Positions 24,001 to 36,000 of a stretch of DNA of 64,000 nucleotides are shown piece after piece. Within the stretch, counting starts at the first letter, position 1; each line of letters starts with the position of its first letter. A program made the position numbers. Origin of the DNA: Sinobacterium caligoides (GTDB lineage Bacteria > Pseudomonadota > Gammaproteobacteria > Pseudomonadales > Sinobacteriaceae); assembly GCF_003752585.1 (NCBI RefSeq), contig NZ_RKHR01000004.1, positions 960,054 through 1,024,053 of the forward strand. Reading direction: 5' to 3'.

Positions 24001-27000
24001 TATCAGACCCATTCTACGAGATCGCCTCTAACCCAGCAGCAAGAGCAACTTTCATCACTTCGATTATCGCCCTCATCGACCAGTATGACTTCTTCGATGG
24101 CATCGATATTGACTGGGAGTTCCCCGGTGGTGGTGGTGCCAACTCTACGCTAGGCTCTCCCGATGATGGGAAAAACTTTGCGATCTTAATGCAAGAGTTG
24201 CGCGCAGCATTAGATGAGTTGGAAATAGAAAACGGCAGAACTTACGAGCTAACGGCAGCCGTCAGTGGCGGCGTTAGTAAAATCAGCGAAATTGACTGGG
24301 AGAATGCCATTGACTCAATGGACCAAGTCAATGTGATGACCTACGACTACTATGGCACCTGGGATCAAACCTACGGTCACCAAACAGGTATCTATGATAC
24401 CGATACTAGAAGCACGCTCGTCGACGGTAGCAACGCCAACGATGTCGTCAACTATCTAACCACTAAAGGTGTCGCCGCGAACAAGATCAGCGTTGGCGTA
24501 GCGATGTATGGTCGTGGCTGGACAGGCATCACGAATGGCGATGCAAGCGGCCCCTTTGTCGAAACTGCGACAGGCGGCACGCCCATCACTGGACTTGAAG
24601 CAAATGGTTTCTGGGAGGACGGTATCGTTGACTATCAAGGCATCGAAGAAAATCAGCTTGGCGGCGAAGATGGCCAAGGCGCCAATGGCTTCGAGCTGTT
24701 CTGGGACGACATTGCCAAGGCAACCTACCTATGGAACGAAACGACCGGCACCTTCATCTCTTTCGATGACAAACGTTCGGTGAAGGCCAAAGGTGACTTT
24801 GTCACTGAAAAAGGCTTGGGGGGGATTTTCTCCTGGGAGATCGACTCCGATAACGGCACCCTGTTAAACGCCATGCACGAAGGTCTAGGCCACACCGAAA
24901 AAACACAGTAACAAAATGCGACAGTAGTACGACAGAGCGCTAAGTGCCTTGGGCCTTAGCGTTTTTTATTGCGCTGCTTGCACGAACAAGCACCTCTACA
25001 CGAGTAATAGAAGCAACTTATTTAGCCTTTATTTTTCTGCTTAACGCCCAGCTGTGAATAAATATATGCAAATAAAATACCTGCTACAGCACCGAAAAAA
25101 TGTGCTTCGTATGAAACATGCGAATCAGTCGGCAATACTCCGTAAACCATCCCGCCATATAACAGCCACACCAGCAAGGCGAGCAGCATATTGATCAGGC
25201 GGCGATCAAACCAGGCCATCGCCAACGATAAACTCCATAAACCAAACACCCAACCACTAGCACCAACATGGGAAGCCGATCGACCTAACAGCCACACCAA
25301 GCAACCACTTACGATGATGATAAAGGCACTGCTCACTAGGTAGAACTTTACCGAGCGCAACAAGCTGATCGCCGTAAAAAAACACAGAGCAACTAAGTTG
25401 CTCACAAGGTGCGCCGCACTTGCGTGAATAAAGGGCGCGATTAAAATACCAAAACTGCCCTCAACAGAGCGAGGCACAATGCCGAGCCCGCTCAGCCCGC
25501 CAGGCGTAGTAATATTGACCAAATGCACAAGGCACATAGTCACTACCAAGCCAGCTATAAGCCACAACTTTCCCCTAAGCGCCTTCGACAGCTTCAATTT
25601 ACTAACGCTCTGGCTTTGGCTTTGACTTTACTCGCGGCCGCTGTGCCGCTTTTAGCTCCCTTAACTGCTGAGCAATACCCTGCATCTTGTCATGAGTACG
25701 AAGATCGATATCAAGCTTCTTATCCATACTACGCACCAGCGGGTAAATACTATGTTCGATTGTCTCTGCGAGAACAGTCAACACACCATCCATACCTGGT
25801 ACTGGCTGATTAATAACCTCGATATTAGGGCTTAGGTTCTCCAGCGCAGCGGCAATCTTCTCGACGATCGTCGTCAACAGCGCAATTTCATCGGCGTGTT
25901 TCGGCTGTTTCTCACCGCCCTCACTAGCGGTTTCCGCAAGCTGTTGAATACCAGTAACCATATCGGATAACTGCGCAACAACCCTGCCACCCACATCACC
26001 ATCATCTCCCCCCATGGCTTTGTTACGCAGGAAATCCTTCTTAATCTGCTGCCAGCGAAGCGCCTGCTCTTCCGTCATATTGCCGCGTAATTCGGCGAGT
26101 TTGAGCAGGTTATCCTCGGCGCCCGTGGTAAGCAACTGCGCCTCGCCCAAATAATGATCGGCGATCATCTGTAGCATTTCCTGCTCGTTCATCACCGCTG
26201 TAATTTTCTCAGTCATCTTGTTCATGTTGCGATAACTACCCTGCAACTTGAACGCCGGCTCAGTACGGTATTTGTCGTCCTGTGCCGCCGAGGCGATATA
26301 TTGCTTATTGATCTTCAGTATCACCTGCTGAACCGTCAGCATTTTTTGTAAGATCTCTGTGATCTCATTAATTTCGGCAGCACTGTACTGATGACTCAGG
26401 TCGCTGCTGGCAACACGGTCGCCTTTTGCGAGCTTAATCAACTTATACACATCGTCCATATCACGCACGGCTAACGGCGCTAAGACGGGGTTTGAGGTCA
26501 AAGAGTTTTCAATATAGCTCAGCGAGAACTGCTCATCCATACCACCTAAAATATCACCGAGATTGTAGATGTCAGCACGGTTAGCCAGCATGTCAGGAAT
26601 TTTGAATGCCTCACCAGATTCCGTATAAGGGTTACCCGCCATAACAACACAAAACTTCCTGCCACGCATATCATAGGTTTTGGTTTGCCCTTTCCAAACA
26701 CCATCAACCCGCCTCGTACCGTCACACAGGGATATGAACTTTTGTAGGAATTCGGGATGAGTGTGCTGAATGTCATCGAGGTAAAGCATGACATTATTGC
26801 CCATCTCTAAACCGAGATTCAGCTTTTCTAATTCATTCCGTGCCGTCGCGTTCGGGGCTTGCTGTGGGTCAAGTGACAGCACATCGTGCCCGAGGGAGGG
26901 GCAGTTAATTTTCATGAAAATCAACCCAAGACGATTGGCGACATACTCCATCAGCGTTGTCTTACCGTAGCCTGGCGGCGAAATCATCATTAATAGGCCC

Positions 27001-33000: not shown

Positions 33001-36000
33001 ATAATTTAATTTTATTACTTAGAGAATTCTTCTTCAGAAATAACGCTATAAGAATTTCTCTCTTTGGAATACTCAAGAAGGACCACTCGATCACCCTTAG
33101 TAAAGCGCTCCCCCCCTCTCGTTCTAACCTTTAATATTAGTCCTGCACCACCATCTTCTAGTACAGCCTCACCAAACTCACCATCAACGCGAGACGTTCT
33201 AACGATCGCAGACTGACCCAAGATATACTTGACCGTTTGCTGCTGACTTTTATTGAACAAAGGCCTCAGCGGCTTAATAATAAAAGCAGTAAGCTGTACT
33301 GACACATAGAGACTAAACGCCAGCACTGGCAGCCCAGCCATATAACGAAAAAATCCAGGCTCAACGAACTGAAACAAGAAGTGCACCATGTAATAACAAA
33401 TTAACCATCCGCAAAGTGTCATTATGGAGAGAATAATAGTGACCGGTACGCCGTTGAGCCCATAGCGCAACATCAAACCTGCCAGCGTATCTAGATTTGT
33501 TAGGTTGCTCGTGGAATTAACGCCTAACTCACCGTCAGCATCTGGAATGTCGATATCAAGGATATCAAGGTCGACAAAACCCAACACCGCTACCAGCCAG
33601 TACAAGGCGCTCATCAGCAAAAAGAAGGTGAAAAACACTGTAGGAAATGATGCGATGTTCTGATAGAACGGGTCCATACCTTCAGTCAGTAAAATCGCAA
33701 ACATGCTTAAACCCTATCGTTAGTATTATTATAGGTGCTGCCACACCCCCTAGCCCGATGCTTTGCCCCCTTTTATTCTCGCCAGAATATCATCAGCATT
33801 GCGTGTAGTCGAGGTAATGCCCGCCTCATCTAACTTTTCTTGCAGCGAGTCGCCGCTAGCATCTTCAGCTAACTCACTCGCAGCTGACAGTTGCGCCTCC
33901 TTTAGAGCCTGCTTTTCTTTTATTCGCTCAAGCGAGTCCATGGCTGTACGCATTTTAGACTGCGAACCACTATAACGATCTGCCACAGCGACTTGAGCTC
34001 GCTGAACATTCTCTGTCGCCTTAACCGTGTCGACCTGCTGCTTCAGACGCTTTATATTTCGCTCCGCCTGTTTGATTGCTTGGCGCAACTTATTGGCACT
34101 GGCAGCATAGCCAGTCTCGACATCCTTCTCTTGCTTTAGCTGATTTTCTATATCAGCGATTTTTTCCGCCACCTCACGCGCCAACGGTTCATCACCCTTC
34201 TCTAGCGCTTTCAAGGCATAGCCTTCAAATTGCTCAATTTGGCGACTATAGTCCTTGCACTTTTCTTCCGCTAGCTTTTGGTGAGCCATGATCTCAGCCA
34301 AGCTACCTTTTGATTCATGCAGCTCTTCAGAAGCCTCTCGCACCTCTTGGTCTAAAATTCTTAGCGCCTGAGTATCAACAATTGCTTCACCCGCCTCATT
34401 TACACCACCCCGTAAGGCGGTCATCATTTTTGCCCAAATACTCACTGATCTACTCCTTGCTTATTAGCTGGCCTCAACCGGAATTGATAAAAACTCACTA
34501 TAGGCCTCAGTTGCATGAATAACATTGCTCGCCAATGTCTCGATTTCAAAGACGATATTTGGCAAAATCGACGTCGAACTCAAGGCTCCAAACATATGAT
34601 AAAAATCACTACTGTGACCGGCCGAATCATGAACAATTCGATCAAGGCTAATGGTCGACAACGGGAAATACTTATGTGTTTTTAACACGGCCTCATTGAA
34701 CAGCGCAACATCGGCTACCTCGGCAACCGACCACAACATCGCCTCAGCGATAATTTGATCGCCAACGACCGTCACAAAGATCGGCAGATCACCATAACCA
34801 GTCATGATGACATGTAAAGCAGGCGAGACACCATCGATCAATTCCACCGTCGCCTCACCGCTGACAAAAATCTCTACCTCCTGCAAAGCCTCATACAGAC
34901 TATTTGTTGTCCAATTTTTAGTCTTATCTGTCATTCTACTCACTCCTATTGACTCTTCTTCGCCTGCAAGTCGTCGAAACTGTTTCTCGACCACTGCAAG
35001 TTGCTTGGCATTCTCCGGGAGAATCCACACTTCCTTCTTAACCAGTCCCTGATCACGAAGACGCTTTCTGTATTCACGCTGATAATGTGCTGATGATTTT
35101 GCTTTCATGAAATAAATATATGCCATTACATGTAACATGTCAACGAGCTTACATGTAACACATAAGCAACACTTGAATCAGACAGCAAAACCAACATTCA
35201 AAGAGGCGCACAAGATCAACAGCGACACCCCACCTACCAGCCACACAAGATAACTTCCTCATACCCCCAACAACCAACAACCAACAACCAACAACCAACA
35301 ACCAACAACCAACAACCAACAACCAACAACCAACAACTCCACCGCAATAAAAAACCAAAGCACAACATAGCAAGAAAAATAAAGCCCACAAAAAGCTAAC
35401 CGCAGTTAAAAAAAACACAATCAATTAAAAAAAATAAAATTTAAAAAACTTCACACTCCCTTAATATTCAACCGCCACAATCATCCGCGCATCCAGTTAC
35501 AAAAATACCAATTAATAGCATTTGGAAAGCAACGATGAAAAATAATTTATTAAAACTAGGGTTCACCCTAGCCGTTTCCGCTATACCGCTCAGCTCTTTC
35601 GCCGCCCAAAAGGCCATTCTCATAGGCATCGATGGCGTTCAGTACGAGAAAATGCAGGCGCTAGACACCCCCAACTTCCATCGCCTTACGATCAAAAAGA
35701 CTTACACCGGGGGAATCGCTGGCGACTACAGCGAACAAGGCACTTCCAGCGGCCCTGGCTGGTCCACAATACTCACCGGCGTCTGGGCCAACAAACACCA
35801 GGTCATATCTAACGGCTCAGGTCATGCTAGCGAGGACTTTCCAAGCATATTCCGCCGAATCATCACAGCAAAGCCCAACTTAACACAGGCATCTCTTGTT
35901 AACTGGTCACCCATCCATAGCCAGTTTTTCAGTAACGATGTCGACGACATTGCCGTAGCCAAAAAAGGGCTTAGCGATACCAGCGTAACCAGCTCCACCA

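Follow-up and report, generated by a model that had tools for sequence, protein, structure and literature searches.

A rhomboid-ended bac-type PspA-flotillin operon in Sinobacterium caligoides and a conserved operator pair that suggests autorepression by its first gene product

The 64,000-nt stretch of Sinobacterium caligoides DNA analysed here (the window) contains a six-gene operon, the genes of which we designate A to F in operon order, 5' to 3' on the minus strand. They encode a BacA/YjfI-like protein (A), a PspA/IM30 protein (B), a YqiJ-like membrane protein (C), a YqiK-type flotillin (D), a giant beta-propeller/coiled-coil/AAA+ protein (E) and a rhomboid intramembrane protease (F). This locus is almost certainly the S. 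caligoides orthologue of the bac-type PspA-flotillin operon, here in a rhomboid-ended form, and because it is orthologous to a described system it is not categorically new. The best overall explanation, to which we give a probability of about 0.6, is that it is a bac-type operon that is autorepressed by A, in which E acts as a motor on a flotillin scaffold and the rhomboid protease forms the tail. Our additions to the literature are modest: (i) an exchangeable tail of rhomboid, PLD and Zn-ribbon genes, in which the rhomboid also pairs with A-B alone, and (ii) a conserved operator together with a model of a leaderless autorepressor.

Two bodies of work frame these data. In Pseudomonas aeruginosa the six genes bacABCDEF of the 'biofilm-associated cluster' (PA3732-PA3727 / PA14_16140-16200) are co-transcribed, as determined by reverse transcription PCR in PA14, and BacA exerts a negative effect on its fellow Bac proteins, a bacA transposon mutant over-accumulating BacB-F 6- to 13-fold (Wallart 2024, PMC10948618). 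PA3731 (BacB) is induced by osmotic shock, and a PA3731 mutant is impaired in biofilm formation, swarming, rhamnolipid production and virulence (Mace 2008, PMC2587700); through P. aeruginosa the system is medically relevant. The order of BacA/DUF2170, PspA-like BacB, BacC, BacD and DUF3686-AAA+ BacE is identical to that of A to E; a 2026 paper identifies BacC as a short NfeD protein and BacD (PA14_16180), the orthologue of D, as PaFlo3. Ravi et al. 2024 (PMC11237479) described CesT/Tir(YjfI)-PspA genes together with band-7/flotillin, YqiJ and an AAA+ protein with an N-terminal beta-propeller and a coiled coil, optionally joined by a PLD (HKD) gene, and proposed ATP-dependent, ESCRT-like membrane dynamics; the abbreviated flotillin-YqiJ-AAA+ form that they found to be widespread corresponds to the C-D-E core described below. 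For this operon, neither their paper nor its supplement mentions a rhomboid, a Zn-ribbon tail gene, an operator or an N-terminal domain in the YjfI-like protein. Our searches of the literature found no paper that links a rhomboid to a bac-type operon or to PspA/YjfJ. The initial annotation of the locus had regarded the combination of a giant AAA+ protein and an intramembrane protease as undescribed, which holds for the rhomboid, absent from both papers, and not for the AAA+ protein, present in both.

The mechanical open reading frame (ORF) list reproduces exactly the coordinates at which six same-strand genes with gaps of 4-122 bp had initially been proposed: six minus-strand ORFs extend from 35138 to 25022 (Table 1) with intervals of 18, 45, 37, 122 and 4 bp, and the rhomboid gene does have a TTG start codon, situated 4 nt beyond the end of E. 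Profile searches agree with all six identities given to the genes at that time (YjfI-like, PspA, YqiJ-like, YqiK/flotillin-like, AAA+ giant and rhomboid). Since the flanking genes (for an NAD-epimerase, a GH18 chitinase, a phosphodiesterase/hemopexin protein and a MOSC oxidoreductase) are unrelated and convergent or divergent, the six-gene unit is self-contained. The short gaps and the single strong promoter ahead of A are compatible with one A-F mRNA, and the separate internal promoters and terminators that would have spoken for independent genes did not appear: promoter and terminator scans gave no convincing candidate inside the operon, only a weak hairpin in the D-E gap. This gap is also the longest one in many related loci, and the hairpin may be an attenuator.

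The conservation of the operon was analysed with one genome per species, using the best 80 of at least 572 relatives of the giant gene (52-74% identity to E) and screening these 80 loci by phmmer with the six window proteins. The loci span Cellvibrionales, Pseudomonas and its allies, Enterobacterales, Orbales, Lysobacterales, Kangiellaceae, Alteromonadales, Zetaproteobacteria, Lampropedia and Longimicrobium. C-D lie upstream of E in all 69 loci with sufficient upstream DNA, and the complete A-B-C-D series does so in 53 of them. Thus, the C-D-E core is invariable, the A-B prefix is frequent, and the rhomboid/PLD/Zn-ribbon tail is exchangeable. With C-D ahead of E in 69/69 cases the grouping far exceeds chance, and this conservation leads us to reject chance juxtaposition. 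The giant ATPase is habitually flanked by flotillin, NfeD and PspA genes, as had been anticipated, and the opposite pattern, an ATPase gene that mostly occurs without SPFH and PspA genes, was not seen, E never standing without C-D in the informative loci; C-D are its constant partners, and A-B (53/69) and the rhomboid (31/77) are not. In the P. paraeruginosa locus L040 the order is kept and A to E are matched with phmmer E-values of 8e-61, 1e-69, 6e-55, 5e-250 and 0, respectively. The system is widespread, the scored homologues of E numbering more than 5,800; E itself is 100% identical to an S. caligoides protein.

The evidence for autorepression comes from protein A and the DNA in front of its gene. 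A matches Pfam DUF2170 (1e-47) and exceeds, with 305.6 bits, the cut-off of 300 of the NCBIfam equivalog 'biofilm formation regulator BacA'. Met11 of the maximal ORF (ATG at 35108) is kept in 51 of 54 A homologues and is most likely the true start, giving a protein of 214 aa (34464..35108, minus strand). The C-terminal part (residues 75-217) is a DUF2170/CesT-like domain with 30% identity to Escherichia coli YjfI, which lacks the N-terminal domain. This basic N-terminal domain (ORF residues 11-55) is conserved in 52 of the 54 homologues, and residues 13-61 weakly resemble plasmid repressor F (UrfF, E 0.004), the sole sequence hint of DNA binding.

Upstream of A, a sigma-70 promoter of the form TTGACA-17-TATATT scores 11/12 in the promoter scan. 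A perfect 10-bp palindrome, TTACATGTAA, stands on either side of its -35 box, these being the only two exact copies in the window, and its -10 box ends 6 nt ahead of the ATG at Met11. Among the 96 T(T/C)ACATGT(A/G)A sites in the 80 loci (1.82 Mb), 88 fall between -250 and +80 relative to the called start of ORF A. One or more such sites occur in 45 of the 53 loci with gene A, and two or more, spaced by 21-25 bp, in 38; among loci without gene A only one of 27 has a site, and that one is far from the operon. In 37 of 46 loci a distance of 16-19 nt separates the end of the downstream operator from the ATG, and the order operator, TTGAC-like box, operator, TAnnnT, 6-7 nt, ATG is common to Cellvibrionales, Pseudomonas (including P. 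paraeruginosa), Lysobacter and Lampropedia. The simplest reading of this geometry suggests a leaderless sigma-70 transcript with A binding to its own operators, and we consider it rather probable that the A transcript is leaderless and that A is a chaperone-repressor fusion that would repress its own synthesis via the palindromes. As a repressor of its own operators, A would explain the derepression in the bacA mutant. We found no published description of this operator with a leaderless autorepressor, and the paired operators and leaderless start upstream of A are apparently undescribed.

The tail of the operon is its variable part. F has five to six hydrophobic segments, and the residues H58, H63 and N67 (H-x4-H-x3-N), G112, S114, G115 and H166 are invariant in 37 of 37 homologues, from which F is expected to be an active protease; classification as a rhombosortase is rejected (TIGR03902, 33.3 bits with a cut-off of 84). 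A rhomboid gene directly follows E in 31 of 77 loci and is found elsewhere in the locus in five more. Its linkage persists in rearranged forms, namely the order F-C-D-E in Kangiellaceae and a rhomboid on the opposite strand upstream (L011, L042). A PLD-family (PLDc_2) hydrolase gene is present in 30 of the 80 loci, usually either after the rhomboid or right after E (P. paraeruginosa, Halopseudomonas, Lysobacter). Accordingly, the sixth gene encodes a PLD-family hydrolase in P. paraeruginosa, as we infer from L040 also for P. aeruginosa PA14, in contrast to a rhomboid in the window, while most other Pseudomonas species have both tail genes in the order A-B-C-D-E-rhomboid-PLD. A double Zn-ribbon protein of about 180 aa is encoded in 18 of the 80 loci, E-rhomboid-PLD-Zn-ribbon being among the orders seen. 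Neither a PLD gene (tblastn with the PLD homologue) nor a Zn-ribbon gene is present in the 64 kb of the window.

In a reciprocal scan with the rhomboid as anchor against metagenome contigs, 72 informative loci were obtained. In 10 of these the rhomboid adjoins E, in one it forms F-C-D, and in about 18 it adjoins A-B without C-D-E (A-B-F, PLD-A-B-F or F-A-B). These compact A-B-rhomboid units, some with PLD first and none with flotillin, YqiJ or giant ATPase genes (L100-L108, L120, L131, L146-L148), encode A proteins that keep the basic N-terminal domain, and TTACATGTAA sites are mostly absent from them. The rhomboid clade is, therefore, not exclusive to the operon and has been recruited repeatedly, in varied arrangements, to the PspA dyad and to the flotillin/AAA+ core. 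It could be argued that the rhomboid is a passenger, i.e. a housekeeping intramembrane protease at the 3' end of the operon with no functional tie to A-E: about 60% of the related operons lack it, among them the P. (para)aeruginosa type on which experiments have been done, and about 42 of the 72 metagenome loci have no bac-type neighbour and instead diverse ones such as genes for a K+ transporter, an M90 peptidase, a GNAT protein or an aldolase. However, the stop-start spacing of E and F is 4 nt here and becomes a 4-nt overlap in many Pseudomonas loci, and linkage in at least three arrangements (E-F, F-C-D-E and A-B-F/P-A-B-F, P standing for PLD) is hard to explain without selection. We regard the passenger explanation as rather unlikely and favor a functional tie between the rhomboid and its partners.

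The remaining proteins were identified by direct matches or by comparison of profiles. B shares 37% identity with E. coli YjfJ along the whole protein (E 1e-41) and reaches only 20 bits on the canonical PspA equivalog TIGR02977 with its cut-off of 243; no PspB, PspC or PspF family match was found among the six operon proteins in Pfam and NCBIfam, and we reject a canonical Psp system (pspF-pspABCDE) on these two grounds. Neither C nor D gave a usable match in sequence searches of Pfam, NCBIfam and the PDB, so that profile comparison was needed. A profile of 74 homologues aligns C with E. coli YqiJ over 139 columns (hhalign probability 91.6%, E 8.4e-7), the pairwise BLASTP E-value being 3e-6 and that of Pfam YqiJ_N only 0.06; the true start of C is probably Met10. 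The D profile aligns with E. coli YqiK over 409 columns (probability 99.9%, E 2.5e-33, 33% identity) and covers YqiK residues 16-438, i.e. the SPFH and helical regions. The D protein of the window has no Pfam match, and only one of 25 D-family members reaches Band_7 directly, indicating that this flotillin family is divergent.

The E. coli yqiJK and yjfIJ(KL) genes are homologous to parts of the operon, D corresponding to YqiK, C to YqiJ, B to YjfJ and A, in its C-terminal domain, to YjfI. In E. coli, however, the two pairs are unlinked and come without a giant AAA+ protein and without a rhomboid. A 2025 laboratory-evolution study reported that a 1-nt deletion, located some 80 bp ahead of yjfI, activates the normally silent yjfIJKL operon in heat-adapted strains (PMC12492005). 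As the E. coli yjfI promoter (L162, about 6050-6133) has no palindrome, repression of yjfIJKL must differ from that suggested for A.

Protein E consists of a beta-propeller, long helices, two further predicted domains and an AAA+ module (Table 1). AlphaFold models of E have predicted local distance difference test (pLDDT) values of 79 and 70.6, the AAA+ fold was confirmed by structural matching, and no hydrophobic segment is predicted. The homologue alignment shows no variation in Walker A, the sensor-1 Asn or a candidate arginine finger. Single-sequence and profile searches of the PDB gave matches at the level of Walker A or of coiled-coil noise only. For the N-terminal 1200 residues, Foldseek matches with nucleoporin, IFT-A and Elp1-type beta-propeller/helical proteins have TM-scores of about 0.1 and are rejected as signs of membrane-coat homology; we take them only as a propeller followed by long helices. 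The AAA_5 model PF07728 aligns nearly over its full length (29 bits with a cut-off of 22, positions 2-125 of 139) as opposed to half of PF00004 (33 bits, positions 2-72 of 131), which makes the designation 'MoxR-type' plausible. MoxR systems typically have an adjacent gene for a VWA-domain partner, and no VWA match was found in Pfam searches of the operon proteins or in the flanking genes. In the initial annotation E had been called MoxR-type; the motif pattern, the AAA_5 alignment and the presence of NorQ/CbbQ among the best and lowest root-mean-square-deviation structural matches agree with this name, while Vps4 is also matched, no AAA+ clade is favored over the others and the VWA partner is missing.

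The match to Vps4 bears on an explanation that is essentially that of Ravi et al. 2024 (PMC11237479), in which E is a Vps4-like ATPase that disassembles and recycles an ESCRT-III-like PspA polymer formed by B, and the flotillin pair serves as a platform. PspA belongs to the ESCRT-III superfamily, its gene is linked to an AAA+ gene, a pairing that Ravi et al. compare with Snf7-Vps4, and A-B stand alongside C-D-E in the majority of close relatives, as counted above. However, the complete A-B pair is missing in 16 of the 69 informative loci, in which C-D are always with E; A-B(-F) units occur without E; and flotillin-YqiJ-AAA+ operons without PspA are widely distributed according to the same authors. 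Moreover, no MIT-like domain was detected in E, which is about four times larger than Vps4, has another set of domains and shows a closer linkage with flotillin than with PspA. We consider PspA as the primary client of E unlikely and favor the flotillin scaffold in this role.

Combining the conservation data with the domain assignments, we suggest the following model. (i) The operon would be read from the sigma-70 promoter, the -35 box of which lies between the two T(T/C)ACATGT(A/G)A palindromes, and the transcript would start at or near the ATG of A. (ii) A dimer of A would bind the palindromes via the basic N-terminal domain and repress the operon, and the CesT-like domain would hold the PspA-like B; drawing of B to damaged membrane would then result in derepression. 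(iii) D and C would build an SPFH/flotillin scaffold at the cytoplasmic face of the inner membrane. (iv) E, a soluble and probably ring-forming protein with helical arms and a propeller, would use ATP to assemble, remodel or empty this scaffold; that C-D are the invariable partner of E argues for the flotillin scaffold, and not PspA, as its primary client. (v) A-B would add an ESCRT-III-like membrane-repair polymer under the control of A. (vi) F, translationally coupled to E, would cleave transmembrane proteins in or near the stressed microdomain, coupling membrane-protein quality control to membrane repair, and the PLD enzyme of other tails would act on lipids of the stressed patch. The scaffold, motor and protease steps are tentative, and we would put them clearly below even odds.

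Parallels for this mode of action exist in systems that combine similar parts. The mitochondrial SLP2-PARL-YME1L 'proteolytic hub' (Wai et al. 2016, as related in PMC7966987) brings together an SPFH scaffold, an AAA+ protein and a rhomboid and is an analogy only; HflK/C-FtsH of bacteria likewise joins an SPFH scaffold to an AAA+ machine and is analogous in mode of action, not homologous as a system. E has neither a protease domain nor a membrane anchor, and by no discriminating test does its AAA+ module belong to the FtsH/YME1L family. By analogy, the operon might encode a 'repair-and-edit' hub in which a flotillin/YqiJ cage would mark a damaged patch of the inner membrane, hexameric E with propeller-tipped arms would remodel it together with PspA, exchangeable rhomboid and PLD enzymes would clear it of transmembrane proteins and lipids, respectively, and BacA, as a leaderless chaperone-repressor fusion, would sense free PspA and thereby govern the system. 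This picture is speculative and, taken as a whole, improbable; if true, the hub would be a prokaryotic counterpart of SLP2-PARL-YME1L combined with an ESCRT-III/Vps4-like mechanism.

In addition to the patchy distribution of the rhomboid, several points weigh against our model. First, published work proposed a sigma-54 (-24/-12) promoter for bacA (Mace 2008, PMC2587700; Wallart 2024, PMC10948618). No sigma-54 site (TGGCAC-N5-TTGCW-like, up to two mismatches) was found between 35108 and 35535, so that such a promoter is not supported for A here, where the sigma-70 promoter is present instead. The published BacA is a 16-kDa protein (Mace 2008) of which 139 aa, the DUF2170 part, were crystallised and found to have a CesT-like fold (Wallart 2024), whereas the NCBIfam BacA model has 206 positions and a longer, leaderless A is indicated in the window. 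In L040 (about 5600-5720) the conserved Met, the N-terminal domain, the TTACATGTAA operators and the same promoter geometry are present upstream of and in A, which suggests, from this P. paraeruginosa locus rather than from PAO1 or PA14, a 5' truncation of the published gene model for P. aeruginosa bacA and a true promoter of the sigma-70 type; the sigma-54 proposal may rest on the truncated model. Second, the basis for a DNA-binding role of the N-terminal domain of A is its co-occurrence with the palindromes and the weak match to repressor F, and the palindromes could be bound by another regulator. Third, the Walker B motif of E is hhhhDD (D1376-D1377, nt 26772-26777) instead of ending in DE and is invariant in 34 homologues; E may, therefore, be a slow ATPase or a switch. 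Fourth, A-B-F loci without C-D imply that C and D are not obligatory substrates of the rhomboid. Finally, deletion of paFlo3 (D) in PA14 reduced biofilm by only about 20% (the 2026 paper naming PaFlo3).

Two further explanations fare less well. In an anti-phage or abortive-infection system, the propeller/AAA+ protein would be a sensor and the PLD and rhomboid enzymes exchangeable membrane-attacking effectors; the 3' tail of hydrolases is indeed variable, PspA is historically known as phage-induced, and defence systems commonly include large ATPases that carry repeat sensors. However, PADLOC 2.0 gave no match for five of the six proteins, and for B only noise at the level of coiled coils (E > 1e-3), the neighbours are ordinary metabolic genes and no defence island, the locus is found in many genera of the Gammaproteobacteria and beyond, like a core function, and the supposed effectors accompany the stress-protective PspA, so that we regard a defence role as very unlikely. 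That E is a DNA-repair ATPase is the least probable explanation and is rejected: nothing speaks for it except the Pfam DUF3686 label ('ATPase involved in DNA repair') and names at NCBI that were taken from it, searches of Pfam, NCBIfam and the PDB found no nuclease, helicase or DNA-binding domain in E, the gene is always embedded among genes for membrane proteins, and we found no paper that mentions DUF3686. The public names of the E family ('DNA repair ATPase', 'DNA repair protein' and once 'tRNA ... methyltransferase MnmC') derive from this label or are errors.

The modular design of the operon has several implications. An invariable core of flotillin, YqiJ and giant AAA+ protein, to which PspA/BacA and the hydrolases are add-ons, indicates which interactions should be tested first. 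The exchangeable tail and the pairing of the rhomboid with BacA-PspA alone point to turnover of membrane proteins and lipids in PspA-type stress responses. The operators, sigma-70 promoter and leaderless start offer a concrete, testable mechanism for the reported negative control by BacA, and the P. aeruginosa bacA gene model and the sigma-54 promoter proposal merit re-examination.

Table 1. Coordinates of the genes and other features of the operon (window positions unless a locus is named; aa, residues of the respective protein)
Feature	Position	Strand	Remarks
Operators	35149-35158 and 35126-35135	-	TTACATGTAA; direct sequence reading
-35 box TTGACA	35143-35138	-	between the operators
-10 box TATATT	35120-35115	-	
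A, maximal ORF	34464-35138	-	224 aa (ORF list)
B, YjfJ-type PspA/IM30	33750-34445	-	231 aa, GTG start (ORF list); PspA_IM30 1.2e-48; 18-bp gap to A
C, YqiJ-like ('short NfeD') membrane protein	33015-33704	-	229 aa (ORF list); about 3-4 hydrophobic segments, soluble beta-rich C-terminal domain
D, YqiK-type flotillin	31025-32977	-	650 aa (ORF list); one N-terminal hydrophobic segment, SPFH region, long E/A-rich helical region
D-E hairpin GGGGAG-CACGT-CTCCCC	30992-31008	-	weak, terminator-like, poor T tail, in the 122-bp gap; terminator scan
E, cytoplasmic protein	25602-30902	-	1766 aa (ORF list); Pfam DUF3686 2e-206, DUF7902 1e-27, AAA 7e-8, AAA_5 1e-6
E, beta-propeller (DUF3686)	aa 39-485 (29448-30788)	-	Pfam; beta-rich at aa 60-420 in the model
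E, long helices/coiled coil	aa 437-855	-	includes DUF7902 (aa 607-689); AlphaFold model and Pfam
E, small beta domain	about aa 873-904	-	predicted
E, helical domain	aa 930-1185	-	predicted
E, AAA+ module	about aa 1295-1450 (26553-27020)	-	Pfam core near aa 1300-1430; followed by helical C-terminus
F, short rhomboid intramembrane serine protease	25022-25597	-	191 aa, TTG start 4 nt past the TAG stop of E; Pfam Rhomboid 2e-17
F, catalytic Ser114	25256-25258	-	GxSG motif (G112-A-S114-G115)
F, catalytic His166	25100-25102	-	His of transmembrane segment 6
Hairpin CGCTAAG...CTTAGCG	24938-24961	T-run on +	10-bp interrupted, inner GCC/GGC stem; followed by TTTTTTATT on +; direct sequence reading
Extra tail genes, example L005	15329-17163		
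Extra tail genes, example L027	15238-16494		
Extra tail genes, example L040	15231-15938		

Some minor features flank or overlap the operon. The hairpin at 24938-24961, which is absent from the list of the terminator scan, sits between the end of F (25022) and the end of the convergent chitinase gene (24911); it is probably the terminator of the chitinase gene, and its action may be bidirectional or shared. Two ORFs were rejected as genes: an antisense ORF of 181 aa in the flotillin gene (31152-31697, plus strand) is most likely an artefact, an A/S-rich reverse reading of E/A-rich repeats, and an ORF of 91 aa (35149-35424) overlaps a microsatellite and the promoter region. This microsatellite, (CCAACAA) x 10.1 with 100% matches, occupies 35267-35337 in the intergenic region, with the operon promoter on one side and the divergent gene for the phosphodiesterase (start 35535) on the other, and its copy number could differ among strains.

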